Shown: positions 4,804-63,149, counted from the stretch's first letter. The stretch: 64,000 bases of DNA from Vicinamibacterales bacterium (GCA_965262985.1 OZ253576.1:2057213-2121212), one strand, 5' to 3'. The notes: generated by a model not told the origin, from the letters alone. Numbers and translations are program-made.

Positions 4804-4969
4804 CTAGCAGCCCGTGGTGGAACCCCGCGTTGCACCGAGATTGGCGCTGCGCCCGCGTGGCAAGGCGCGACGAGGGAGCAAATTGGGGCATTTGTGACCG
4901 AGGAGCAACGCCGCCACGTGGGATGCAGCGCCAATCGAATGCAGTGGGGATTTCACCACGGGCTGCTAG
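4804..4969 (+). repeat. MITE-like palindromic intergenic element, copy A (short form, 166 bp)
   Basis: CTAGCAGCCCGTGGTG...CACCACGGGCTGCTAG forms 16-bp perfect terminal inverted repeats. The whole element folds into one long imperfect hairpin. The core is GACGAGGGAGCAAATTGGGGCATTTGTGACCGAGGAGC. Related copies lie at 39320, 43235, 48345 and 60533. Confidence 0.9.
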
Positions 4970-7230
4970 CTCCGTCCGCGGCCACGGCGGGTCTGGCGCC
5001 CGGCAGCGGCGGGACGTCCTCTGCCGGCCACCCGGTTGCGCCGCGGCCCGCGGTTTCTGTCCGATTCCCGAACGGCGTCGAGAATTTCCACCAACCCCAA
5101 ATCGACGCGGCGCCGCACCGTATCCACCCGCACCACCTGCACCGCCACCGCGTCGCCCAGCCGGTATCGCTTGCGGGTGTTCTCGCCGACGAGCGCATGG
5201 TCCGTGTCGAAAAACCGGTAGTAGTCATCGGCCATGCTCGAGATGTGCACCATCCCTTCCACGAAGTGCTCGATCAGCTCGACGAACAGTCCGAACCCGG
5301 TCACCCCGGTGACGTAGCCGGAGAACTCGTCGCCCACCTTGTCCGCCATGAAGCGCACCTTCTTCCACTGCAGAATCTCCCGCTCGGCGTCCTCCGCTCT
5401 GCGCTCCACCGTGGACGTATGACGTCCGATCTCCGGCAGCTCGTCAGCAAGTTCTTCGATCCGATCCGCCGCCGTGCCACCCTGCCGCCGCTCACGCAGC
5501 AATCGATGCACGACCAGATCCGGATAGCGGCGAATCGGCGACGTGAAGTGCGTGTAGGTTTCTGACGCCAACCCGAAATGCCCGGCGTTCACGGCGGCGT
5601 ACCGCGCCTTTTGCATGGTCCGAAGCATCAGCAGCGCCACCGGCCGTTCCTCGGGCCGTCCATGCAGACGCCGCAGCAGCGCCTGGAAGTGTCGGGGCCG
5701 CACCAGTTCGGGCGACACCCCCAGACCGTATCCCAGGCTGCTCGTGAACGCGTCGAACTCGGCCACCTTGTCCCTGTCCGGCGCCTCATGCACGCGATAC
5801 AGCGCCGGCGCCCCGCTGTCCTGCAAGTAGCGGGCGATGGTTTCGTTGGCCACCAGCATGAACTCCTCGATGATGCGATGAGCCACGTTGCGGTCCGCCG
5901 CGACGATGTCCTCGACCATTCCGGCTTCGTCGAGCACCAACTGGGTCGCCTTGAGGTCGAAGTCGATCGACCCGCGACGCACCCGCCGGTCTCTCAACCG
6001 CCGATACACCGTGTGCATCGACTCGAACATCGGCACGAGCGCGGCGTACTCGCGTGAGGTCTCCGGGTCGCCCCGATTCAGGATGGCGTCGACCGCCGTA
6101 TAGGTCATTCGCGCGGCCGAGCGAATGACTCCGTCGTGCAGTTCGAAGCGCACGACGTCGCCCGTCGGATCGATGTCCATGAGGCACGACTGCACCAGAC
6201 GGTCGACCCCGGGATTCAAGCTGCACAATCCCGTGGCCAGCGGCGTGGGAAACATGTGCAGCGCGCGGTCCGGAAAATACACGGACGTTCCGCGGGTAAA
6301 GGCGCACTCGTCGAGCGCGGTCCCCTCCTTCACGTAGTGCGCCACGTCGGCGATGTGCACGCCCAACCGGATGTGGCCGTCGGACAGCGGCTCGAGGCTG
6401 ACCGCGTCGTCGAAGTCGCGCGCCGTCTCACCATCGATTGTGACCGTCGTATGCGAGCGAAAGTCGGTGCGTCCCCGCAGATCCCCCGCCGTGATCTCGG
6501 TTCCCATCCGCTCGGCCTCCGCGGCGGCGGCGGGATCGTGCGCATCCGGAATCCGGTATTTTCTGAGAATCAACTCCGTGTCGACGCCGGGGTCTTCGAG
6601 AGCGCCCAACACCTCGATGATGTGTCCGATCGGGCCGCGCGCCGGGGTCGGCCACCGATCGATCTCAGCCACGACCATCTGGCCGGACACCGCCCCCGCG
6701 GTCGCACCACTGGCGATCTGAATGTCCATGACCACCCGCGGATCGAACGGCACCACGAATCCAACCCCGCTCTGGTCAATCTCGTAGCGGCCGACGAGAT
6801 CCTGGTTGGCGCGCTCGAGCACCCGCACGATGCGACCCTCGCTGCGCCCCTCGGCGGGTTCGACCCGCACCGTCACCCGATCGTCGTGCATCGCCTGATG
6901 CAGGTTCACGCCGGCCACGAAGATGTCCCTCTCGCCGCGCTCGACCTCATCGTCCGGCGTCACGAACCCGAAACCCCGCGGATTGACCTGGAGACGGCCA
7001 ACCACGAGATTCATCCGATCTGCCAGACCGTACCGTTGTCCACGGATACGGATCATCGCGCCGGCGTCGACAAGCTGCCGGATCTCCCGCCGAAACCGAT
7101 ACCGATCGTTCCGGGTAATGCCGAGCACACGGATGAGCTCCCTGATGGTCGCCGGATGACCCACGCGTTCCCGAATCTGTCCGAGGAGGTCACCGGCCGG
7201 CGCATCGCCCGGTCTGTCGCTGTCAGTCAT
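4966..7230 (-). CDS. rnr: Ribonuclease R (RNB family 3'-5' exoribonuclease)
   Basis: Cold-shock/OB N-terminal region, RNB catalytic domain (TIDGETARDFDDAVS, HFGLASETYTHFTSPIRRYPDLVVHR), S1 domain and a basic Arg/Gly tail. I prefer the ATG at 7230, which overlaps the upstream stop as ATGACTGA. Confidence 0.93.
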   Translation of the reverse strand: MTDSDRPGDAPAGDLLGQIRERVGHPATIRELIRVLGITRNDRYRFRREIRQLVDAGAMIRIRGQRYGLADRMNLVVGRLQVNPRGFGFVTPDDEVERGERDIFVAGVNLHQAMHDDRVTVRVEPAEGRSEGRIVRVLERANQDLVGRYEIDQSGVGFVVPFDPRVVMDIQIASGATAGAVSGQMVVAEIDRWPTPARGPIGHIIEVLGALEDPGVDTELILRKYRIPDAHDPAAAAEAERMGTEITAGDLRGRTDFRSHTTVTIDGETARDFDDAVSLEPLSDGHIRLGVHIADVAHYVKEGTALDECAFTRGTSVYFPDRALHMFPTPLATGLCSLNPGVDRLVQSCLMDIDPTGDVVRFELHDGVIRSAARMTYTAVDAILNRGDPETSREYAALVPMFESMHTVYRRLRDRRVRRGSIDFDLKATQLVLDEAGMVEDIVAADRNVAHRIIEEFMLVANETIARYLQDSGAPALYRVHEAPDRDKVAEFDAFTSSLGYGLGVSPELVRPRHFQALLRRLHGRPEERPVALLMLRTMQKARYAAVNAGHFGLASETYTHFTSPIRRYPDLVVHRLLRERRQGGTAADRIEELADELPEIGRHTSTVERRAEDAEREILQWKKVRFMADKVGDEFSGYVTGVTGFGLFVELIEHFVEGMVHISSMADDYYRFFDTDHALVGENTRKRYRLGDAVAVQVVRVDTVRRRVDLGLVEILDAVRESDRNRGPRRNRVAGRGRPAAAGRQTRRGRGRS

Positions 7231-8494
7231 GCCGCGGCGGAGTGGTCGTGTTGCCGGCGAGCAGAATCTGGAGATCACCCACGTTGGTGCCGCTCGGCCC
7301 GGTCCGTATCAGGTCGCACAGCGGATCGAAGAAGCGGTAGGCGTCATTGTTGTCGAGGTAGTCGTGCGGACCGCCGAGATGCAGCGCCCGCGCCCGTGCC
7401 AGCGTGGTGGAATCCACCAGAGCGCCTGCAGCGTCCGTCGGTCCATCCACCCCGTCGGTGCCCACGCTGGCCAACACGACAGGAGCAGCCTGACGGTCCA
7501 GGCTGGCGGCGGCGGCCAGCGCCAGCTCCTGGTTTCGCCCGCCACGGCCCTTCCCCTGCACCGTGACCGTGGTCTCGCCGGACGACACCACGCAGACGGG
7601 CCCGGACGGACATCCACGCAGGGTCAGGCTGCGAGTTACATGTGCGGCACCGGCCACGCGGGCCTCTCCGGTCAGCGGCGCCTCCATCAACGTCACCGTG
7701 TACCCGAGCCGGCGCGCCTCCGACGCCGCGCCCGCCATGGCCTGCCGGCGACTGCCGATCAGACGGAACGTCGAACGGGCCGCCGCGGGGTGACCCGGTT
7801 TCAAGGTTTCCGGGACCTCCCCGGCGGCGCCGCGCTCCATGACGTCCAGCACGCTTGCCGGCATGCGACGTCGGATAGCTGGGGCGCCGGCGATCGACAA
7901 CGCCTGACGATACGTCGTCCGATCCGGAACGGTCGGTCCAGAACCGATCACCGCCGGATCGTCCTCGACCGGCCCCACCACATCCGAAATGGCCAGTGTC
8001 AGCACGCGCCCGCGGGCGGACAGCGCCAGACGTCCTCCCTTGACCTCTGACAGGTGCTTTCTGACGCAGTTCAGCTCATGAATCGGGACTCCGGCCGACA
8101 GCAGAATCCGCGTGGCGTCAATCTTCTCCTCAAGGGTCAATCCGTCGACCGGCGCGGCCAGCAGCGCCGACGCGCCACCGGACAGCAACACTAGCACACA
8201 CGACGACGGCTCCGACTGCGCGGCGCAGCGCAGTGCAGCGCGGCCCGCCTCGACGCTGCCCGCATCCGGCAACGGATGCCCACCCTGGAGCCACGACATC
8301 CCGGCCGGCACCGGCGCGCTGCGGTCCGGCCCCACCGCGACCCCGCGGGCGACCTGAACGGTGGTCGAGATCAGCAGACCGTCGATCATCCCCGCCGCCG
8401 CCTTTCCCGCCGCAATCAGGGTCGGGGCGGCGCCGATGGCGCTCCGCACCGCCGGGTCGGCGAGCGCAACCTGCATCAGACGCCGCGGCGCCAC
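7223..8494 (-). CDS. Glycerate 2-kinase / hydroxypyruvate reductase-like protein (MOFRL family)
   Basis: GAGKAAAGM, LLSGGASAL, RKHLSEVKGGRL, GETTVTVQGKGRGGRNQELALAAA and VGTDGVDGPTDAAGA motifs. The N-terminus probably extends upstream of the first canonical start (see findings). Confidence 0.85.
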   Translation of the reverse strand: MAPRRLMQVALADPAVRSAIGAAPTLIAAGKAAAGMIDGLLISTTVQVARGVAVGPDRSAPVPAGMSWLQGGHPLPDAGSVEAGRAALRCAAQSEPSSCVLVLLSGGASALLAAPVDGLTLEEKIDATRILLSAGVPIHELNCVRKHLSEVKGGRLALSARGRVLTLAISDVVGPVEDDPAVIGSGPTVPDRTTYRQALSIAGAPAIRRRMPASVLDVMERGAAGEVPETLKPGHPAAARSTFRLIGSRRQAMAGAASEARRLGYTVTLMEAPLTGEARVAGAAHVTRSLTLRGCPSGPVCVVSSGETTVTVQGKGRGGRNQELALAAAASLDRQAAPVVLASVGTDGVDGPTDAAGALVDSTTLARARALHLGGPHDYLDNNDAYRFFDPLCDLIRTGPSGTNVGDLQILLAGNTTTPPRHD

Positions 8495-38507: not shown

Positions 38508-38768
38508 TCACACCTGAACCGCCGCAAACCGGCCGCCCCTGCGATCCGTGGGCAGCAGCGACCCCGCCGTATGGTGGACGGTTGTGCAGTGCGGCCCTTT
38601 CACCTCCAACGCGACGACATCCAGACCGAGCGCTCTGGCGACGTAGCCGCCCGCCACGCACCCGCAGGGCAGGGCTGCGAATTCCCGGAGTTCGAAAAGC
38701 GGCCCCAGTGACGACTGCTCATCCCGTGCTGCCGGCATCGCTCCCCCCAGGTTGGCATGTTGGCTCAT
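38508..38768 (-). CDS. Small hypothetical Cys/His-containing protein
   Basis: 86 aa, moderately high GC3, LPCGCVAGGY...KGPHC. It converges on the 38281 ORF with a 17-bp gap. No SD sequence and no known family. Confidence 0.4.
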   Translation of the reverse strand: MSQHANLGGAMPAARDEQSSLGPLFELREFAALPCGCVAGGYVARALGLDVVALEVKGPHCTTVHHTAGSLLPTDRRGGRFAAVQV

Positions 38769-38967
38769 GTGTGATTAGACGCGGGAGCGCGGCATTTGGT
38801 CCCTCCACACCCGCCGCCTTGTGGAAAACGTGTGGATGATGTGTGCATCGCCTGTGAATCGAATGTCGAATGAAATTTTTTCTGCGCGAGGAAGACGCGC
38901 CATTGCGAGGCGCGCCGCGATGTGCACCCGTCTTCGTCCTTTCCTTCGCTTGGCGACCCTCGGGCAA

Positions 38968-39234
38968 ATGGCTAAGATTTCATACGTCACCTCGGCAACC
39001 CTGACCCCCTGCAGTATCGTGAACGTCCAGCGCATCGAACACGTCATCAACGGCCGCGCCTATCAGATTGAGGCGATGCTTGTCGATCCGGATCGATGGC
39101 GCGCGTATCTGGTCAGTGTTCCCGGCGGCTCGACGGCGCTCATGCCGTTCTACGGCGCGACCCCCGAACTGGCGGTGCAACAGCTCACTGCCTGGCTGAC
39201 TCTGGCCCACCAGGCGCCCACAATTCCGGTATAG
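38968..39234 (+). CDS. Small hypothetical protein, possible paralog of 38281..38490
   Basis: The internal ATG at 38968 gives 88 aa (MAKISYVTSATL...). DRWRAYLVSVPGGSTALMPFYGATPELAVQQLTAWLTL parallels ARWVAWVTT...GRTQAEAEANAHAWADKL. Confidence 0.5.
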   Translation: MAKISYVTSATLTPCSIVNVQRIEHVINGRAYQIEAMLVDPDRWRAYLVSVPGGSTALMPFYGATPELAVQQLTAWLTLAHQAPTIPV

Positions 39235-39319
39235 TACGAACTCGAACGCCGTGGCGCCTCACGTTCGGGCGACAGGCTGACCTGAACCGTACCGGCTCAC
39301 GCGGCGTTGCGCCAATCTC

Positions 39320-39536
39320 ATGGCAGTCCGTGATGAATCCCCGCGTTGCACCGGGATCTGGTCGTCACAATTCCGCGTACGGCCGTTGCAAAGCGCGACG
39401 AGGGAGCAAATTGGGAGATTTGTGACCCCGGCAATCAGAAGCCCAGCGCCGCCCGACGCGGGACAGGGAGCAAATTGGGAAATTTGCGACCGCAGCGCCG
39501 ATCGAATGCAGCGGGGCTTTCACCGCGGGCTGCTCG
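39320..39536 (+). repeat. MITE-like palindromic intergenic element, copy B (long form, two core hairpins, decayed ends)
   Basis: GCAGTCCGTGATGAATCCCCGCGTTGCACCGGG...GACGAGGGAGCAAATTGGGAGATTTGTGACC...CAGGGAGCAAATTGGGAAATTTGCGACCGCAGCGCCGATCGAATGCAGCGGGGCTTTCACCGCGGGCTGC. Confidence 0.85.
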
Positions 39537-40585
39537 GGCTCTCGTTGATCGCGGCACTGTTCTGGACGCCGCTCCAGGAATCAACCGCCGCACAACCGGC
39601 GCGCGTACGCCTGATCACGACCGGCGGCACCATCTCGAACCGGGCGGGAATCCGGCTGTCTCCGCAAGAACTGCTCGCCACGGTGCCGGACCTTGACGAT
39701 CTCGTCGAGGCCGAGGCCGAGGAATTCGCCAATGTCGCAAGCAGCGCGCTGACCCTGGACCAGTGGATGCAACTGTCGCGCCGGATCAACGACCTGTTCC
39801 GGACGGATCGCACACTGGCCGGCATCGTGGTGACGAGCGGCACCGACACGCTGGAGGAATTCGCCTACTTCCTGCACCTGACCGTCAGGGACGCGCGGCC
39901 CGTGGTCGTCGTCGGATCGATGCGCCGTCCCGACACGCTGGCGTATGACGGCGCCGCAAATCTGAGACAGGCGTTGCGCATGGCCGGCGACCCCGGCTCG
40001 CACGGTCGAGGGGTGCTGGTCGTCTTCAATGACGAGATCGACTCGGCGCGCGACGTGACCAAGACCAGCACCTCGCACCTGCAGGCGTTCGAGTCGCGGG
40101 GCTACGGGGTGCTGGGCCACGCTGCCCGCGATCGCATTGTGTATTATCGCCGGTTGGAACGGCGTCACACCGTGACGAGCGAGTTCGACGTCGACCGGAT
40201 TCCCCGCCTTCCGCGGGTGGACATTGTCATGGCGTATCAGGGCGCCTCGGGCGATCTGATCCGCGCCGCGGTGAATCGGGGCGCCGCCGGCATCGTGGTG
40301 GCCGGAGCCGGAGCCGGAGCGACCAGCGCCGGACAGGGCGACGCGATCGCCTATGCATCCGAGCGAGGCGCGGTGGTGGTGATGACGTCACGTACGGGCC
40401 GCGGGCGTATCGTCCCGCGCGGCGCCACGCTGCCCGAACCTGATGACAATCAGGACCTGCCTGCCCGCCGCCAGCGCATCGCAGGCGACGATCTTGCCCC
40501 GGTCAAGGCGCGGGTACTGCTGATGCTCGCACTGACAGTCTCGAAGGACCGTGACGAGATCCAACGGATGTTCGGAGAGTACTGA
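39506..40585 (+). CDS. L-asparaginase (type II-like, probably secreted)
   Basis: LITTGGTISN, SGTDTLEEFAYFL and the rest of the asparaginase core. The ATG at 39506 gives a signal-like N-terminus (MQRGFHRGLLGLSLIAALFW...). That ATG lies inside repeat copy B, so the start is uncertain. Confidence 0.88.
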   Translation: MQRGFHRGLLGLSLIAALFWTPLQESTAAQPARVRLITTGGTISNRAGIRLSPQELLATVPDLDDLVEAEAEEFANVASSALTLDQWMQLSRRINDLFRTDRTLAGIVVTSGTDTLEEFAYFLHLTVRDARPVVVVGSMRRPDTLAYDGAANLRQALRMAGDPGSHGRGVLVVFNDEIDSARDVTKTSTSHLQAFESRGYGVLGHAARDRIVYYRRLERRHTVTSEFDVDRIPRLPRVDIVMAYQGASGDLIRAAVNRGAAGIVVAGAGAGATSAGQGDAIAYASERGAVVVMTSRTGRGRIVPRGATLPEPDDNQDLPARRQRIAGDDLAPVKARVLLMLALTVSKDRDEIQRMFGEY

Positions 40586-40597
40586 CCCGCACCAGCC

Positions 40598-40635
40598 CGG
40601 ACCAGGCAACCACACGGGTTGCCCCGCAGGCGCGG
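40598..40635. repeat. REP-like hairpin unit (single copy of the 37-bp family)
   Basis: GGACCAGGCAACCACACGGGTTGCCCCGCAGG, with stem GGCAACC/GGTTGCC. It sits between the convergent stops at 40585 (+) and 40644 (-). Near-identical units form the tandem array at 51709. Confidence 0.75.
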
Positions 40636-40643
40636 CGGTGCCG

Positions 40644-41717
40644 CTACGCAATGCCGGCGCCAAGGACGCCGACGTACACGGCGTAGAGCGACTGGCTGGC
40701 GGTCATGAACAGGCGGTTGCGTCTGGTGCCGCCGAAGCAGACGTTGGCGCAGCGCTCGGGAAGCCGAATCGCCCCGATCAGGTCGCCGTCCGGCGCCGTA
40801 ACGAGCACTCCATCGCCCGCGCCGGCCCAGACGTTGCCATCGACATCGCACCTGATGCCGTCGGCCGCGACCACGTTCTCGGACCCCGGTGCGTGCAGTT
40901 CCGCATGCCGGCGGCCGCGCGCGAGCCGGGTGCCCTCGACGTCGAAAACGCGAATCTCACGGCCCGACCCGGTATCCGCCACATACAGCCGGCTGTAGTC
41001 AGGTGAGAAGCAGAGACCGTTCGGACCACCCGGCTCATCGGTCACGAGCGTGACCTGGCCGTTCCCCGGATCGACTCGGTATACGGCCGGGGGGGTCTCG
41101 GATTCGGCGCGGAACCCCTCATAGTCACCGCGAATGCCGTAGGGCGGATCGCTGAACCAGATGCCCCCATCCGGATGCACCACGGCGTCGTTCGGCGAAT
41201 TGAGCCGTTTGCCGTCATACCGGTCGGCGATGACGGTGACATCGCCGTTCTGCTCATACCTGGCGACCCGCCGGCCGCCATGCTCGCAGGAGAGCTGGCG
41301 TCCTTCGCGGTCGAACGTGTTGCCGTTGCTGTGACCCGAGGGGCTCCGAAACACCGTGACCCGTCCGTCGTCCTGAATCCATCGGTGCTGGACGTTGTTG
41401 GGGATGTCACTCCAGACCAGATACTGTCCTACCCCGTTCCACGCCGGTCCCTCGGCCCACATGGTGCCGATGTGCAGCCGCCTGATCGGCGTATTGAAGA
41501 GAATGTAGCGGCGAAACCGGGGATCGAGTGCGATGAGATCGGGGTCCGGATAGGGCAACGGGTTCTGCCCGGACCAGTCTCGCGGTGCGTAGGGCGGTAC
41601 TTGCGGCGCCTGCTGCCGCGCCCATGCCGGCGCGGCGATGCTCCCGGCGAATGCCGTGCCAAGAAACGCCCGGCGTGTCCACGCCGAATTCCTGTCGTTC
41701 CGCTGCTGATCCGCCAT
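40644..41717 (-). CDS. SMP-30/gluconolactonase/LRE family protein with a Tat-type signal
   Basis: RRAFLGTAFAGSIAAPAWA twin-arginine signal, six-bladed propeller motifs, NGLCFSPDYSRLYVADTG. ATG at 41717. Confidence 0.85.
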   Translation of the reverse strand: MADQQRNDRNSAWTRRAFLGTAFAGSIAAPAWARQQAPQVPPYAPRDWSGQNPLPYPDPDLIALDPRFRRYILFNTPIRRLHIGTMWAEGPAWNGVGQYLVWSDIPNNVQHRWIQDDGRVTVFRSPSGHSNGNTFDREGRQLSCEHGGRRVARYEQNGDVTVIADRYDGKRLNSPNDAVVHPDGGIWFSDPPYGIRGDYEGFRAESETPPAVYRVDPGNGQVTLVTDEPGGPNGLCFSPDYSRLYVADTGSGREIRVFDVEGTRLARGRRHAELHAPGSENVVAADGIRCDVDGNVWAGAGDGVLVTAPDGDLIGAIRLPERCANVCFGGTRRNRLFMTASQSLYAVYVGVLGAGIA

Positions 41718-43234: not shown

Positions 43235-43399
43235 CTAGCAGTTCGTGGCAGAACCCCGCGTGCACCGAGCGTAGCGCGGCGCCCGGCTGGCAAGGCGAGA
43301 CGAGGGAGCATATTGGGTATATGCGACCGAGGAGCAACGCCGCCCAGGCGGGATGCCGCGCAGCGCGAATGCCGCGGGGCTTCCGTCACGGACTGCTCG
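43235..43399 (+). repeat. MITE-like palindromic intergenic element, copy C (short form, 165 bp)
   Basis: CTAGCAGTTCGTGGCAGAACCCCGCGTGCACCGAGCG...GACGAGGGAGCATATTGGGTATATGCGACCGAGGAGCAACGCCGCC...GCGAATGCCGCGGGGCTTCCGTCACGGACTGCTCG. Confidence 0.9.
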
Positions 43400-43443
43400 C
43401 AGTTCGTGGTAGAACCCCGCGTGCACCGAGCGCGGCGCGGCGA
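43400..43443 (+). repeat. Partial tandem duplicate of the element's 5' module
   Basis: CAGTTCGTGGTAGAACCCCGCGTGCACCGAGCG repeats positions 43239-43271 almost exactly, immediately after the copy C 3' end. Confidence 0.8.
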
Positions 43444-48344: not shown

Positions 48345-48411
48345 GCAGTCCGTGGCGCAGCCGCACGCAACACCGAGCGAATGGCGCGGGGCTGTCACCA
48401 CGAATCGTCAG
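48345..48411 (+). repeat. MITE-like element, copy E (internally deleted mini form, about 67 bp)
   Basis: GCAGTCCGTGGCGCAGCCGCACGCAACACCGAGCGAATGGCGCGGGGCTGTCACCACGAATCGTCAG matches the 5' arm plus the 3' arm of the full copies and lacks the central core. Confidence 0.7.
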
Positions 48412-50036
48412 CCCGTGATGCGGCGACCGCAGCCTCGAGCCATTGCCCAGCCGCCTCCCTCGCCCTCGCGCCAGTAGCGCAGTTGCGGGGGGCCTGGCCG
48501 GGCCGTGTACGCGTCGACCTCTACGAAGCTGTAGCAGGGCGGCAACTGCTCCGGCTGCAGCGCCTCAAGCAGTTCGATGTCAGACGATCCCCGGTCGTTC
48601 CTGAACCGGTCCAGCATCACCGGCGTGACGGTCCGCTGCCAAGCGCCGCCATTGATCACGATCGGGGCGACCGCATCACGTACCGGCGAAAATCCGTCCA
48701 CGACATACCTCCCCCCCGCTTCGACACGCGTGAAGTTGCTCTGCCGGAAGTCGGCGAGATGGGTATGTCCGTGGATGAACACCGCGATCGGCGCCCCGTC
48801 GCCCCGGCGACGCTCCAACTGGCGCTGGAACAACCGGTCGCGCGACTGCCAGAAGTACTCGAACCGCGGTCCGGTCGTCTCTACCGTGCGGGGACATTCC
48901 GCGACCGGCGGACCCAGCGGGTCGATCTGGGTGAGAATCCGCTCGAACCTGCGTCGCGCCCGGCGCACGGCGGCGCGCTGGTCGCAGAGCGCCCTCAACT
49001 CGTCGTCGCTCAGCGCGGTCATCAGCGCGTCGAGTTGGCCGGCGGCGAACGCCTGTGCCGCCAACGGCTGGAGGCGGTCGTCATCCGGCACCGACCCCAC
49101 CAGAAACGCCGCCCCTTCCGCGCGCACCTGGTCGATCCGCCACTCCGGCGGCTGGACGTCGCCACTATCGAGATCCATCCGGAACTGTTGCCACGAAAAC
49201 CGGAACAGCAACTCGCGCAGCAGCACCGGCGCGGCCGCGCCAACATCGTCCGCTCCGGTCGCCGCCAGCGCGAAGCGCAGTCCCGCCGTTTCGTCAGCGA
49301 GGTTGTCGACGACCGGAAACCGCGTCTCGTAGCGGTCGAAGAGCGTCAGGAGCATCTTCCGGTCCGCGGACTGCTCGACGTGCCGGCGACCGGCGTGTTC
49401 GACGAACGGCGCCGGCCACGCCTCGAACCGGTCGGCGCCGGTTCCGATCTGATGACCATGTTCCACGTGGACCAGACCGTCCACCGAGCGCCAGAATCCT
49501 TGCGCCGCAAGCGTGACCCGACCGGCGGCGGCCCCGAAGGCCGCGACCGCGCGGGTCCCCGCCTCTGGAAACAGCAGCGCCGCATCATGCTCACCGGGCA
49601 CCAGCACGACGCGGTTGTCACCGGCGCCCGCGAAGGCGCCGAGGGCGCGCAGCTCGCGCGCATGGGCGTCCAGCACGCGCTCGAGCCTGGCCAGTGCTTC
49701 TGTTTCGGTACACCCGAGGTCCGGTTCCTCATGCGCACAGGGCGTCACGGACATCTGCGCCAGATCAAAGGTGTCCCCGTTGAGAATCAGGTCCGTCGGC
49801 TCGTCCGTCTCGGACGCCAGCGCCTCGAGGAACAGGTCCAGGTCGTCGGCCCACCGGAAGTCTTCGTTGGGAAACCACTCCCCCGCGCTGTCCCGTCCCT
49901 CCCCCATGTGCAGGTCGGACAGCACCACGATGCGCCGGGGTCCTTCCGGGGCAGGCTGCGCACGCGCCGGCGGCGCCAGGCAGGCGCCGAGCATGCCGAC
50001 CAGTCCGAGTGACACGGCGACAGCCGGCGAAAGCAC
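48408..50036 (-). CDS. Metallophosphoesterase family protein (secreted)
   Basis: IVVLSDLHMGEG, NGDTFDL, PGEHD and HGHTH motifs. The GTG at 50036 abuts the upstream stop. An ATG at 50108 would add a twin-arginine-like N-terminus (WRRRRSVLS) but overlaps the upstream gene by 71 nt. Confidence 0.72.
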   Translation of the reverse strand: MLSPAVAVSLGLVGMLGACLAPPARAQPAPEGPRRIVVLSDLHMGEGRDSAGEWFPNEDFRWADDLDLFLEALASETDEPTDLILNGDTFDLAQMSVTPCAHEEPDLGCTETEALARLERVLDAHARELRALGAFAGAGDNRVVLVPGEHDAALLFPEAGTRAVAAFGAAAGRVTLAAQGFWRSVDGLVHVEHGHQIGTGADRFEAWPAPFVEHAGRRHVEQSADRKMLLTLFDRYETRFPVVDNLADETAGLRFALAATGADDVGAAAPVLLRELLFRFSWQQFRMDLDSGDVQPPEWRIDQVRAEGAAFLVGSVPDDDRLQPLAAQAFAAGQLDALMTALSDDELRALCDQRAAVRRARRRFERILTQIDPLGPPVAECPRTVETTGPRFEYFWQSRDRLFQRQLERRRGDGAPIAVFIHGHTHLADFRQSNFTRVEAGGRYVVDGFSPVRDAVAPIVINGGAWQRTVTPVMLDRFRNDRGSSDIELLEALQPEQLPPCYSFVEVDAYTARPGPPQLRYWREGEGGGWAMARGCGRRITG

Positions 50037-50037
50037 G

Positions 50038-51384
50038 CTACGGCGCCTTCGCCAACGAGCGCCGCACGATTTCCCGGTCGTTGCGGGCGACGATGTGGGT
50101 ATTCGCATAGGCGGGATGCGACCAGTTCACGACGTCGCCAGACCGGCGGCGACGCACGTACGGATGGGTCGGCTCGATCAGCCGGGTGCGACTGAGCTCC
50201 CGGTAACCGCCGGGCGACAGCTCGGCGATGACCAGGTCGCCGGTGTCCGTGTTGATGAAATAGCGGTCCTCGTGCCGCACGAAGAACGCGGTCGCCCAGT
50301 TGGTGCGCTCGCCGATCAGGGCGTCGGTCTCCCAGACACGACGCCCGGTCTCGAGTTCGAGGCACCGCAGCAGCCCGTGGCCATCGACGCCGTAGACGTA
50401 GTCACCGTCGATGACCGGCGTGCTGATGACCGAGTTCAGGGTGTTGAAATCGAACCCGTACTCCGGGTCGCTTTCGCCGACCCCTTCCCAGAGCACCCGC
50501 GCTCCGGGGACACGTTCGTCGAGCAACAGCATCCTGGCCCCGCCGTACTGCGACGTGAAAAACAGGTGCGGCCCGCTGCGTACGGCGGTCGCCGGGTTGA
50601 TCCCCATATCGACGATGTGCCGTACCTCCCAGTAGACCTCCCCCGTTTCAGGATTCAACGAGCTGATGTCGCGAGGATGCCAGGCGATGAGCTGCCGTGC
50701 GCCGCCGGCCTCGACGATGATCGGCTGGCTGTAGCCGGGCTCCCAGTCCGACGACAGGGCGCGCCAGATCTCCTCGCCGGTATGTTTGTCGAACGCCATC
50801 ATCTTGGCGTCAGGTTCGCCCCCCACGAGACAGATCAACCGCTCGCCGTCAACCAGCGGTGCGCCGGCCATTCCCCACGACGGGACCGCCGTATTGAAGT
50901 CCTCGGGAAAGTTCTTCTGCCACAGCACCTGTCCATTCTCGACGTGCAACGCCAGCAGATTCCCCATCGCGCCGAGCACGTACACGCGGTCGCCGTCGAC
51001 GGTCGGGGTAGCCCGGGGGCCGATGGCGTATACGAGCTGCAGGCCGGCATAGTCGGTCTCCCACTCCCGCGACCACAACACCTCACCGGTCTGCTCGTCG
51101 AGCGCTAGCGCACGTTCGACCACGGCCGTCGAGCGAGGGTCCGGCCTCCGTGCGTCGGTGATGAACACCCGGCCGCCAGCGACCGCCGGACCCGAATAGC
51201 CGCCATGTATCGGTGTGCGCCACACCACCGGGAGACCTCCGGCGGGGAACGTCTCGAGAAGTCCGGTCTCCGTCAGCACCCCGCGCCGGCCGGCGCCGCG
51301 CCACTCGGGCCAGTCGTTCGCCCGCACCGTCTGGACCAATCCGCACAGGCACAGTACGGCGACCCAACGTGCCATTCGTGTCAT
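50038..51384 (-). CDS. PQQ-like beta-propeller repeat protein (secreted), paralog of 45558..46892
   Basis: MTRMARWVAVLCLCGLVQTVRA signal peptide, NDWPEWRGAGRRGVL, and C-terminal NWSHPAYANTHIVARNDREI. Confidence 0.85.
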   Translation of the reverse strand: MTRMARWVAVLCLCGLVQTVRANDWPEWRGAGRRGVLTETGLLETFPAGGLPVVWRTPIHGGYSGPAVAGGRVFITDARRPDPRSTAVVERALALDEQTGEVLWSREWETDYAGLQLVYAIGPRATPTVDGDRVYVLGAMGNLLALHVENGQVLWQKNFPEDFNTAVPSWGMAGAPLVDGERLICLVGGEPDAKMMAFDKHTGEEIWRALSSDWEPGYSQPIIVEAGGARQLIAWHPRDISSLNPETGEVYWEVRHIVDMGINPATAVRSGPHLFFTSQYGGARMLLLDERVPGARVLWEGVGESDPEYGFDFNTLNSVISTPVIDGDYVYGVDGHGLLRCLELETGRRVWETDALIGERTNWATAFFVRHEDRYFINTDTGDLVIAELSPGGYRELSRTRLIEPTHPYVRRRRSGDVVNWSHPAYANTHIVARNDREIVRRSLAKAP

Positions 51385-51708: not shown

Positions 51709-51832
51709 GGACCGGGCAACCACAAGGGTTGCCCCTACGGAGACGAGACCGGGCAACCACAAGGGTTGCCCCTACGGGGACGGGGTCGCGCAACCACAAG
51801 GGTTGCCCCTACGGGGACGGGGTCGCGCAACC
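51709..51832. repeat. Tandem array (about 3.3 units, 37-bp period) of a double-hairpin repeat
   Basis: GCAAC recurs at 51716, 51753, 51790 and 51827. Unit: GGGCAACCACAAGGGTTGCCCCTACGGGGACGGGGTCGC, with stems GGCAACC/GGTTGCC and CCCC/GGGG. It lies between convergent genes. Confidence 0.92.
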
Positions 51833-60532: not shown

Positions 60533-60766
60533 CTTAGGAGCCCGTGGTGAAACCGCGCGTCGCACCGAGCGTGGCGAGGCGCCCGCGTGGCAAGGCGTGA
60601 CGAGGGAGCATATTGGGCATATGTGACCGAGGAGCCAAGCGGATCGGCAGGCTTTGATGCCGATCCGCAGGCCGTAGCGCTGTCCAGGCGGGGCAGGGAG
60701 CAAATTGGGAAATTTGCGACCGCATCGCCGCGCGAATGCCGCGGGGCTTTCACCACGGACTCCTAG
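60533..60766 (+). repeat. MITE-like palindromic intergenic element, copy D (long form, 234 bp, two cores plus an extra hairpin)
   Basis: CTTAGGAGCCCGTGGTGAAACCGCGCGTCGCACCGAGCG...GACGAGGGAGCATATTGGGCATATGTGACCGAGGAGCC...GCGGATCGGCAGGCTTTGATGCCGATCCGC...CAGGGAGCAAATTGGGAAATTTGCGACC...GGGGCTTTCACCACGGACTCCTAG. Confidence 0.9.
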
Positions 60767-61737
60767 CGAGTCACGGTGATGCTGACGTTTCCGTGCGAGA
60801 TCAGCATGGCGTCGCTGGCAAAGGCCCGCAACGTGTAGACGCCCGGCTCTTCGAACGTGACGGTGGTCTCGAACGTACCCGAGGTCCAACCGTCACCCTC
60901 CATTCCTTCTTCCCACTTCTGATACCCGTAGGGCTCGAACTCGGCGTCCGCGGGCCCGCGAAACACGCGCCAGAGCAGCGACAAGTTGTTCCGTGGGGGG
61001 GTCGGCTTCGAGTACTGCGGGATATTGTCCGGAATGGCCGGAGCGTCGTCCGGCGCCAACAACGTAGGATCGCGTCGCCGGGGCGGCGCGTCCGGATCCC
61101 GCTCCGGTACTGGACTCGGCAGTTCGTCGTCGGTCACCTGCGCCGTCAACGTCACCGGTTGTCCGACCTCGACGGATGTATGACTCACCTCCACGGTCAG
61201 GGTCGGCCACCCGTTGGCGTAGAGTTCGTCGACACCCCGCCCGAACCCGGTGCGGTTGTTCGACGTAATCGTGTTCACGTCGATCTCCCACTCAGGCTGC
61301 AACCAGCCATAGGCGTACTGCGTGCTCCCGTGCGTCGTCAGCTCCCAGACAAGCTCACCGTCCTGCGGAAAATCGGCCGGAACGAGTACCTCGAACTGAT
61401 ACCGGTTCGTGCGCGGATAGAAATAGGTGGACTGCCCGCGATCGGGTTCTCCCGGCGAAAAAAAATTGTCCTCCCCCACCGGCACGTTGGGACGTTCGCC
61501 GTAGTTCCGGTTCAGATAGCCGAAATGGAACCGGTAGCTTCCGTCGTCGTTGCCGGACCATCCTTCGAAGATGGGTTGGATATCCTGCCCCGAATTGAAG
61601 CGCTGCTGCGGCTGCGTCGCGATCGGCACGTCGCGGCGATTGATCTGCGCCGCGGCGCTGCCTGCCCCGCCAAGCAGCAGCATCACTACACCACCGGCGA
61701 GCGCCGCCACAGGCGTCAACCGGCCGACAGACTGCAT
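60763..61737 (-). CDS. Secreted hypothetical protein
   Basis: ATG at 61737, signal peptide (LTPVAALAGGVVMLLLGGAGSAAAQ), high GC3, beta-rich with an Ig-like C-terminal part. The stop TAG lies inside the terminal CTAG of repeat copy D. Confidence 0.7.
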   Translation of the reverse strand: MQSVGRLTPVAALAGGVVMLLLGGAGSAAAQINRRDVPIATQPQQRFNSGQDIQPIFEGWSGNDDGSYRFHFGYLNRNYGERPNVPVGEDNFFSPGEPDRGQSTYFYPRTNRYQFEVLVPADFPQDGELVWELTTHGSTQYAYGWLQPEWEIDVNTITSNNRTGFGRGVDELYANGWPTLTVEVSHTSVEVGQPVTLTAQVTDDELPSPVPERDPDAPPRRRDPTLLAPDDAPAIPDNIPQYSKPTPPRNNLSLLWRVFRGPADAEFEPYGYQKWEEGMEGDGWTSGTFETTVTFEEPGVYTLRAFASDAMLISHGNVSITVTR

Positions 61738-61886
61738 GGTCACGTTCGTATCCCCTTCCGGTCCGGTATCACCAGCGTCGAGACGACCCCGCGCCGCCTG
61801 CTGTGAAAAACCCTCTGCGGAAACCGTCCCGGCTCCCGCAGAGGGTGTGTCGTGCTCTACAACCGCCGCGCCGGAACCATCAACGC

Positions 61887-63149
61887 TCAGTCGTTGTCTG
61901 CTTTCCGGGCCTCGATCTCTGCCGCGTACTCCTCGTCTGACAGATCGTGCCAACTGATCCAGGCAAACGCCATCTCATCGACCGTCCGGCTGCCGCCGCC
62001 GGTCCAGTTCTTCGGGTCGTGGTTGCCCCGATTGGCGCCGGTGTTGTCGTGATAGCTGATGACGTGCAACGTCGTGCCGGCCGGATACACCGGGGTCGCA
62101 TCATTCTCGTAGTTGTAGACGATGTGCCAGTTGAAATCGAAGTTCGCGCAGTTCACCATTTCGGTGGAGCCGTTCGGATAGATCAGCTCCAGGCACTGGC
62201 GGGTGCCCAGGAAGTGCATGTGCGGCTGGAATCCGGTCAACCGGCCCGGCAGATACATCTTCTGATAGCCGTCGTGGCGGGTCACCTGCCCGGCGGGAAT
62301 GTCGAGCTCTCCGGCCTGACCGAGCTGCCGCGAATACAGGATGTGCTCAGGCTCGTATTCCTCGGGATAGAGGACGAGGCCGAGTTCCGTCTGGTCGGTC
62401 ACTTCTTCCCCGACCGAATGGTAGTGGAAGCTGAACCGCACCCGTGAGTCACTCGGGAACAAACGCCCGGTCCCGTCGGGATAGACGTCGGCGTTCTTGC
62501 CAACGGCGTACTCGTTGAGGAACGCATCCCCCGAGCTGTCGTTGAGCGGCGCGTCCTGCTCGGTGACCGCATAGGTCAGGGCATGATGCACGACGCGCAG
62601 GTCGCCGGCCTTGGTCTGGAGCGCCTTGATGTAGCGATCGTCAGGGATTCCCGATGGCACGATGTAGTCGCCCCACCAGTCACCCGCCTCGGACGGCACC
62701 GTGTGCGGCGGCGAGGTGACGATGACGTCCGGCTCAATCGTCCAGGCGCCGAACTCCGGGAATTCGACCGACGGCGGCGCCTCCTCTGGATTGCCCCTCG
62801 GCGCGCCGTTGGCCACCCAGGTGCTGATCGTTGCGATTTCGTCGTTGCTCAACGACCGGTCGTTCTTGAACTCCTGAATGCCAACCTTTGGATCGACATG
62901 CCAGGGGGGCATCTCCCGCGCCTCGACCTTGGTCCGGATCGACCGCGCCCAGGGCCGGGTCTCCTGGTAGCTCATCAGCGACATGGGCGCCATGTTGTTC
63001 GGGCGGTGACAGACCTGGCAAGAGCGCTGGAGAATCGGCTCGATGTCCTTGTGGAACGTCGGATTGTCCGGCACTTCCGCCGAAGCCGGCGCAGGAGCCG
63101 TGACCACCGCAACCGCCAGAAGCAGCAAGACTAGTCTGGCGTATTTCAT
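61887..63149 (-). CDS. Secreted heme c (CxxCH) domain fused to a copper type II monooxygenase-like (PHM/DBH-like) domain
   Basis: GGAGGTGAAGG SD and a signal peptide. Heme site FHKDIEPILQRSCQVCH. The His pattern VVHHALTY ... FHYHSV ... QPHMHFLG ... M resembles the CuH (HH..H) and CuM (HxH..M) sites. Confidence 0.78.
   Translation of the reverse strand: MKYARLVLLLLAVAVVTAPAPASAEVPDNPTFHKDIEPILQRSCQVCHRPNNMAPMSLMSYQETRPWARSIRTKVEAREMPPWHVDPKVGIQEFKNDRSLSNDEIATISTWVANGAPRGNPEEAPPSVEFPEFGAWTIEPDVIVTSPPHTVPSEAGDWWGDYIVPSGIPDDRYIKALQTKAGDLRVVHHALTYAVTEQDAPLNDSSGDAFLNEYAVGKNADVYPDGTGRLFPSDSRVRFSFHYHSVGEEVTDQTELGLVLYPEEYEPEHILYSRQLGQAGELDIPAGQVTRHDGYQKMYLPGRLTGFQPHMHFLGTRQCLELIYPNGSTEMVNCANFDFNWHIVYNYENDATPVYPAGTTLHVISYHDNTGANRGNHDPKNWTGGGSRTVDEMAFAWISWHDLSDEEYAAEIEARKADND

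Follow-up and report, generated by a model that had tools for sequence, protein, structure and literature searches.

Correia elements of Neisseria are TA-duplicating palindromic MITEs that form a hairpin in transcripts and are found close to gene ends. Open reading frames of bacterial MITEs fused to the 5′ ends of chromosomal genes have been described for the BOX and RUP elements of Streptococcus pneumoniae and for BRE of Bordetella (Delihas 2011, PMC3184786), and RPE, BOX, RUP and BRE repeats occur in frame at gene 5′ or 3′ ends or inside genes (PMC3184786). As cited in the same paper, REP2 repeats of Neisseria carry a promoter along with a ribosome-binding site plus ATG upstream of genes (Morelle et al. 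2003), and Rickettsia palindromic elements (RPE) lie in frame within protein-coding genes (Ogata et al. 2000). Fusion of a repeat to the 5′ end of a gene is already known, and the case described here is the same kind of event. The window, i.e. the whole 64,000-nt stretch of DNA analysed, is from a Vicinamibacterales bacterium (GCA_965262985.1, OZ253576.1:2057213-2121212). Our explanation of the locus, to which we assign a probability of roughly 0.8, is that insertion of a MITE cut off the old start of an asparaginase gene and that an arm of the element now supplies start codon and signal-peptide n-region.

The window family resembles Correia elements in size (~100–160 bp), long inverted-repeat ends, TA duplication, transcript hairpin and location near gene ends; it differs in that the candidate parent encodes a DUF772 + DDE_Tnp_1 transposase (IS5/IS1182-like) and in that promoter function was not detected. 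With BOX, RUP and BRE it shares small size, lack of autonomy, inverted-repeat ends and in-frame fusion to a host gene at the 5′ end. Both the family and the clade of its hosts (Vicinamibacterales) differ, and the case stands out by the part apparently donated, a start codon and signal-peptide n-region, and by the completeness of its allelic series, in which empty, single, tandem and recombined alleles resolve the event stepwise and the old start is readable as a relic. REP2, as far as it is summarised in the paper cited above, is similarly a dispersed repeat giving a translational start to a downstream ORF. It is presented there with its own promoter and ribosome-binding site and without terminal inverted repeats, whereas the window element has terminal inverted repeats and a TA duplication, and neither a Shine-Dalgarno sequence within 20 nt of its ATG nor a consensus promoter was found. 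Likeness to RPE, again as summarised there, lies in being palindromic and in frame inside coding genes, the window family unit being 162 bp or 54 codons; RPE are internal insertions whereas the window element replaces an N-terminus, and relatedness in sequence is not to be expected.

The gene concerned encodes a type II-like L-asparaginase (39506-40585, + strand; 359 aa plus stop codon), identified by Pfam and NCBIfam. Matches to PF00710 (E = 2.4e-53) and PF17763 (E = 1.1e-28) were both above thresholds, with the Asparaginase N domain beginning at residue 33 when counted from the ATG at 39506, and the best NCBIfam model was TIGR00520 (type II), at 294.5 bits short of its cut-off of 314.3. The exact 359-aa product is a publicly annotated protein (P0121). 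A first-pass annotation of this DNA had placed ATG 39506 in frame with the asparaginase, and the ORF read from it does end at 40585. Homologs number in thousands; among the best 120 listed, 118 carry ~22–111 residues (typically ~35) before a conserved PRVRLITTGGTISN motif, the motif search giving no match in the remaining two. Nearly all of these leaders read as signal peptides, typically MWRRTLPLGLSLIVGLL...AVAAE|LPRV. Orthologs had been proposed as a test, the adverse outcome being an unrelated, conserved N-terminus starting downstream of 39536; the leaders of these 118 are the opposite outcome. The window protein is homologous to its orthologs from GLSLIAALFW on, with only the first 10 residues (MQRGFHRGLL) unrelated, and these are exactly the residues coded by the element arm plus TA.

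A small conserved gene (38821-39234, + strand; ...AHQAPTIPV* in the window) lies upstream and was syntenic with the asparaginase in all loci examined. It ends ...AHQ(A/S)PTIPV*, has no Pfam match, is on the same strand and directly precedes the asparaginase in every Vicinamibacterales locus examined, thereby anchoring the orthology of the intergenic region. The two genes may be co-transcribed.

A single repeat family is represented in the window by five copies (A–E), all on the + strand, and its core motif gave 0 matches in 100 shuffles. Copy A (4807-4966), 160 bp long and flanked by TA at either end, is of the canonical form and folds as a single whole-element hairpin; a 168-nt stretch of this copy was predicted to form one near-perfect hairpin of -119.7 kcal/mol (z = -12.2). 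Repeat family search also identified copy C (43238-43396), followed by a tandem partial 5′ arm (43399-43442), copy D (60537-60763), a double-core form also found by nhmmer, and copy E (~48345-48409), a remnant with arms only. The arms of the copies are terminal inverted repeats of ~30 nt.

Copy B (39323-39533) is a composite MITE of 211 nt, delimited by a split nhmmer match and by alignment with the tandem allele of a related genome (L001). Its 5′ terminal inverted repeat (39323-39357, + strand, family D5) pairs with the 3′ arm (39492-39533, + strand, family D3), and between them lie core 1 (39402-39427, + strand), a hairpin GGGAGCAAATTGGGAGATTTGTGACC, and core 2 (39466-39491, + strand, family D6), GGGAGCAAATTGGGAAATTTGCGACC. 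The 3′ arm holds a conserved CGAATG whose ATG (39506-39508, + strand) is the putative present start of the asparaginase; CGAATGCAGCGGGGCTTTCACCGCGGGCTGCTCG, at 39503-39536, occurs once in the window. The first-pass annotation had reported this ATG as conserved in all five copies, the second core of copy B as identical to that of copy D, and the ends of copy B as ATGG and CTCG in place of CTAG. All three observations hold: CGAATG is invariant across the five window copies, 39466-39491 matches 60696-60721, and the ends read as reported. In related genomes the ATG is missing from 8 of 93 arms, and so is present in most. The element proper is GCAG...CTGC between duplicated TA, and the CTAG ends represent the TA duplication plus a preferred C/G context, so that the apparently decayed ends of copy B are decayed TA copies. 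At the left target-site duplication (39321-39322) L001 and L100 have TA where the window has TG; at the right one (39534-39535) L100 has TA, and both the window and L001 have TC. The two nhmmer pieces of copy B cover model positions 3-122 and 71-168; element 1 of the tandem found in relatives is represented by positions ~39323-39463 and the 3′ portion of its element 2 by ~39458-39533, these parts meeting at a common GCGGGA.

Central hairpin cores were located in the window at 4874-4899, 39402-39427, 39466-39491, 43304-43329, 60604-60629 and 60696-60721. Paired changes were seen in this hairpin, GCAAAT...ATTTGC (A, B and second core of D) versus GCATAT...ATATGC (C and first core of D), and the terminal arms likewise change in matched pairs (GCAG..CTGC versus GGAG..CTCC). 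Such changes could mean either that subfamilies arose as palindromes or that the hairpin is under selection. Searched at gathering thresholds, Rfam gave no match to a structured RNA in the whole window and only chance-level matches around copies A and B (E >= 0.56), and no tRNA or tmRNA genes were detected in the window.

The copy B family, abundant in genomes of Vicinamibacterales (Acidobacteriota), consists of palindromic, non-autonomous MITEs with TA target-site duplications: terminal inverted repeats are present, the target-site duplication is evident from empty/filled comparison, the elements are small and without a transposase gene, and copies are many and dispersed. The canonical element of 160 bp amounts, with the 2-bp TA duplication, to 162 bp or 54 codons. 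A core-motif scan of one genome per species located at least 88 loci among the matches listed, all in Vicinamibacterales, Vicinamibacteraceae or Acidobacteria MAGs and more than 20 of them in one 5.8-Mb genome, and a profile built from the window copies gave 161 nhmmer matches in the window and collected loci. The modal length of 160 bp was found in 35 of 56 full-length copies, with ends GCAG...CTGC; TA was present at the left end of 34 of the 56 and at the right end of 35. The left TA is mostly preceded by C and the right one mostly followed by G, so that many copies appear to end in CTAG.

A candidate parent IS of 1462 bp (L081:1061-2522) has TA on either side, perfect 17-bp terminal inverted repeats (GCAGCCCGTGGTGAAAG) identical to the repeat ends, and a 485-aa DUF772 + DDE_Tnp_1 transposase as its product. 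The best NCBIfam models for this transposase were IS1182 (171.8 bits, cut-off 270) and IS5 (102 bits, cut-off 140). Derivation of the MITE from IS630/Tc1-mariner was rejected, both models being sub-threshold and neither of them IS630, and the TA duplication and CTAG preference resemble IS630 superficially. The matching terminal inverted repeats, TA duplication and this IS, represented by one copy, make an IS5/IS1182-like element a plausible parent of the MITE. Two of thirteen arm pairs lying 0.4–4 kb apart, L081 and L022, were inspected; the L022 pair encloses ordinary genes. A limited literature search that included MITE terms and Acidobacteria found no paper on this MITE family, which is apparently undescribed so far; Vicinamibacterales, in which the family and its candidate IS5/IS1182-like parent are pointed out here, are a soil clade that has been little studied.

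Empty, single, tandem and window alleles of the insertion site were all observed inside one 90%-identity protein cluster. The empty site (L097, L098 and L099) reads ...accgacacATG CGG CGT TGT ACA CAC CTG A-TA-GGG CTC TCG TTG ATC and encodes the N-terminus MRRCTHLIGLSLI (protein P0127). Comparison with orthologs in genomes lacking the element, one of the checks proposed earlier, places the start of the empty-site gene in L097 and L099 at this ancestral sequence. The single-element allele (L100 and L101) reads ...ggctcACG CGG CGT TGC GCC GAC CTC A-TA-[GCAGTCC...CGAATGCAGCGGGGCTTTCGCCACGGGCTGC]-TA-GGG CTC TCG, with N-terminus MQRGFRHGLLGLSLI and, in L100, a perfect TA duplication. The tandem allele (L001 and L002) consists of a first element, then TA, then a double-core second element ending TC, with N-terminus MQRGFHRGLLGLSLI. 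The window allele corresponds to the tandem without the stretch between two GCGGGA repeats and has the same N-terminus, MQRGFHRGLLGLSLI; as a deletion derivative of the tandem it accounts for the double core of copy B as well as for its odd ends. In one empty-site locus (L099:2968-3041, an OZ244838-like genome) the protein P0126 is annotated from a TTG 13 codons downstream (MIAALFW...); the canonical ATG (MRRCTHLIGLSLI) is intact there, and the annotated P0126 lacks a signal peptide.

Directly before copy B, four-state alignment with the empty sites of L097 and L099 identified a relic of the ancestral start and n-region (39299-39322, + strand). The window reads ACG CGG CGT TGC GCC AAT CTC ATG where the empty allele reads ATG CGG CGT TGT ACA CAC CTG ATA (M R R C T H L I). 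The relic keeps the frame of the ORF but lacks a start codon, the old ATG being ACG in all filled alleles (39299-39301 in the window), and its last codon holds the left TA duplication, decayed to TG. The insertion point splits codon 8 of the signal peptide, at the border of charged n-region and hydrophobic core. ATG 39320, from which a mechanical ORF of 421 aa extends, is the mutated codon 8; it was rejected as the ancestral start on the grounds that it aligns with ATA in that codon and is ATA in L001 and L100. The N-terminus of a 76% identical ortholog (L003, MRHRG...) was also considered as a decayed element arm and dismissed: there was no nhmmer element match there, and its 63-nt intergenic sequence can be aligned to the unique flank found in canonical orthologs (..gcgaatcATG versus ..acggaatcATG). 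Coding sequence divergence was lowest between L001 and L100 (dS 0.014), with the window farther away (dS 0.12–0.13). Despite the closeness of L001 and L100, the window and L001 have the second element's arm in common; either this element was lost from L100, or recombination moved alleles between lineages.

Comparison with ortholog N-termini delimits a putative Sec signal peptide of 30 aa at 39506-39595 (+ strand). The leader read from ATG 39506 has arginines at positions 3 and 7, a 12-residue core LLGLSLIAALFW and a T-A-A|Q site, i.e. a positive n-region, a hydrophobic core within the 7–15 residue range and small residues at -3/-1, and its layout is that of the ortholog leaders. The element contributes the n-region MQRGFHRG as well as h-region residues one and two; GLSLIAALFW and TPLQESTAA|Q are ancestral. 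The first-pass annotation had regarded translation from 39506 as giving a plausible Sec signal, and both the basic n-region and the hydrophobic core it invoked are readable in the sequence; we infer that translation initiates at 39506 and that the product carries a Sec-type signal peptide, with export predicted. Its further suggestion, that part of a repeat has been co-opted as coding sequence, gains support from the allelic states, the orthologs and the pattern of purifying selection. Both gene-proximal arms show a His to Arg change (FHRG and FRHG) relative to the family consensus FHHG. Selection for the extra arginine in such arms was considered and rejected, 13 of 55 unrelated arms also carrying Arg there (p ~0.06, not significant).

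Of the in-frame starts common to the filled alleles, only the arm ATG, located 10 codons before GLSLI, gives a signal peptide; other upstream in-frame GTG, TTG and ATG codons vary between alleles and would add 28–115 mostly acidic or neutral residues. Judged from sequence, initiation at ATG 39506 is the best-supported reading and is probably correct. No Shine-Dalgarno-like sequence was found within 20 nt before 39506. The ancestral start is likewise without one, and its absence at 39506 is therefore no evidence against use. If the whole element is transcribed, the AUG at 39506 lies in the long terminal stem of the predicted fold, and opening positions -15 to +15 is predicted to cost 22–28 kcal/mol in filled alleles versus 9.4 in the empty allele. 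A consensus-type scan of 38700-39700 detected no sigma-70-like promoter, and consensus scans detected neither promoter nor terminator in or near the element. Location of the AUG in the terminal stem suggests that initiation at 39506 may have low efficiency, or may depend on RNA processing or on an internal promoter.

Initiation downstream, at TTG 39545 (M-IAALFWTPLQ...), would yield an enzyme without signal peptide and hence cytoplasmic. This codon is in frame and present in all alleles, and it is the start in the public annotation of three cluster members (P0126, P0128 and P0129), but P0126 derives from L099, an empty site with the canonical ATG intact, so that at least the P0126 call is gene-caller noise. 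The choice of start by a gene caller is no evidence; in one annotation the downstream TTG was selected even for a genome with the empty site. Starting at 39545 would leave six hydrophobic residues and no charged n-region, against the leaders present before PRVRLITTGGTISN in 118 of the 120 best orthologs, and the c-region and TAA|Q site are still conserved between filled alleles. TTG 39545 is also without a Shine-Dalgarno sequence, and we consider a start there unlikely. Read-through from a start in or before the element is very unlikely in our view. The in-frame starts upstream of 39506 (ATG 39320, TTG 39386 and GTG 39422) would give N-terminal extensions of 28–62 aa, and such read-through fits a frame that is open from 39281 across the whole element and the in-frame read-through of this element family in other asparaginase orthologs. 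These candidates sit at different positions between alleles, however, ATG 39320 being ATA in L001 and L100, and the extensions are long, acidic or neutral, unlike a Sec n-region. GTG 39422 lies ~15–19 nt downstream of GGGAG in core 1, but this is beyond typical Shine-Dalgarno spacing and GGGAG is missing from L100.

Sequestration of the AUG in a strong predicted hairpin, the lack of a Shine-Dalgarno sequence at 39506 and the chance of 1 in 3 that an insertion falls in frame speak for inactivation of the gene, or at least of its export, by the insertion, with a decaying ORF and an in-frame ATG by coincidence. Against this, dN/dS among filled alleles is ~0.21 (dS 0.12–0.13) and the asparaginase contains no frameshift and no stop in five filled genomes, indicating that the gene has been under constraint since insertion. 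The arm-coded residues moreover stay in frame through the second insertion and the deletion, and inactivation appears extremely unlikely.

Comparison of the alleles shows that one copy of the element inserted, in a forebear of the window genome, into the asparaginase at the TA within codon 8 (ATA), separating MRRCTHLI, with the original start and n-region, from what follows in the gene. The old ATG later decayed to ACG, a second element was added in tandem, and in the window lineage the tandem pair collapsed by deletion to the present double-core copy. Orientation and phase of the element put the conserved 3′-arm ATG in frame. Under the preferred reading, in which this ATG at 39506 replaced the start cut off by insertion, translation from it would fuse MQRGFHRGLL, coded by the arm plus TA, to ancestral GLSLIAALFWTPLQESTAA|Q, producing a Sec-type signal peptide with two n-region arginines. 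At the level of sequence comparison, the insertion, the target duplication, the loss of the old start, the in-frame ATG and continued purifying selection are all documented by the alleles. The locus offers rare resolution, in that close relatives preserve every intermediate step by which a mobile element rewrote the gene's 5′ end, with the dead original start codon still legible beside the apparent new one. It indicates that a signal-peptide n-region can be swapped for unrelated element-coded residues while purifying selection continues. For annotation, failure to recognise the element results in starts 13 codons too late or 62 too early, and the predicted location of the enzyme changes accordingly.

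The element was also found in other coding sequences. At L038:6303-6478 (minus strand) it lies at codon 5 of the signal peptide of a TonB-dependent receptor, in the same orientation and phase as in the window asparaginase, the site reading ATG CGT AGA GAG C-CA-[element]-TG-GGG TCG GTC CTG... Orthologs of this receptor begin MRRMIGSILVS..., with the empty site ATG CGC AGA ATG ATT GGG TCG. The arm ATG, a candidate start, would give MQQGFCHGLLGSVLVSAVVAAAPAQA|QE; the old ATG (MRRE..) is intact upstream and the arm has lost the arginine. In asparaginase orthologs L005, L006 and L008 an element in the opposite orientation lies between the hydrophobic core and the cleavage site (L005:6058-6245, L006:6058-6300 and L008:6060-6160; proteins P0046, P0040 and P0044, respectively), with junctions ..gtactcc-TA-GCAGCC...TTGC-TG-GCGgtcgcc. 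These copies have decayed to +58, +76 and +27 codons, respectively, and are in frame and open in all three. Copies thus lie inside ORFs at L005, L006, L008 and L038. Three more proteins read through the element (P0024, P0045 and P0055), and the called starts of P0030, P0037, P0047 and P0057 appear to fall inside the insertion.

Of 56 copies, 41 have a length that becomes divisible by three when 2 is added. Among 35 canonical copies, TA at codon positions 2-3 leaves an open frame in 18 for the + orientation and in 28 for the - orientation, and with TA at positions 1-2 a TAG stop arises every time. Three independent events involve signal peptides, namely those in this asparaginase, in the TonB-dependent receptor and in the c-region of another asparaginase lineage. 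It is conceivable but doubtful that the arm (Met, basic residue, ...GLL) is a portable N-terminus and that its features and those of the unit (54 codons, open with TA at codon positions 2-3) were shaped by selection on the element, in which case (C/A)TAG insertions in signal-peptide regions may regenerate a working signal peptide or an in-frame extension and so spare the gene. If true, this would allow repeated colonisation of the 5′ ends of exported-protein genes by the element.

Copies A, D and E each supply, at the right junction, a final base that together with TA reads as the stop codon of a convergent minus-strand gene: TAG of RNase R (4966-7278) at 4966-4968 for copy A, TAG of a 396-aa ORF (60763-61953) at 60763-60765 for copy D, and TGA of a 566-aa metallophosphoesterase-like ORF (48408-50108) at 48408-48410 for copy E. 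Among 88 collected junctions, the junction TAG ends an open frame of at least 100 codons at 43, compared with 26–27 of 88 for the other two frames. These observations suggest that the element often inserts into CTAG where TAG is a stop codon, the stop being regenerated by the G...C ends of the element.

A separate short repeat, CGGGCAACCACAAGGGTTGCCCC, is present as three tandem units with a 37-nt period at 51713-51832, and one related copy (family D4) is located at 40603-40648, just past the asparaginase stop codon. This repeat has the appearance of a stem-loop (GGGCAACC...GGTTGCCC).
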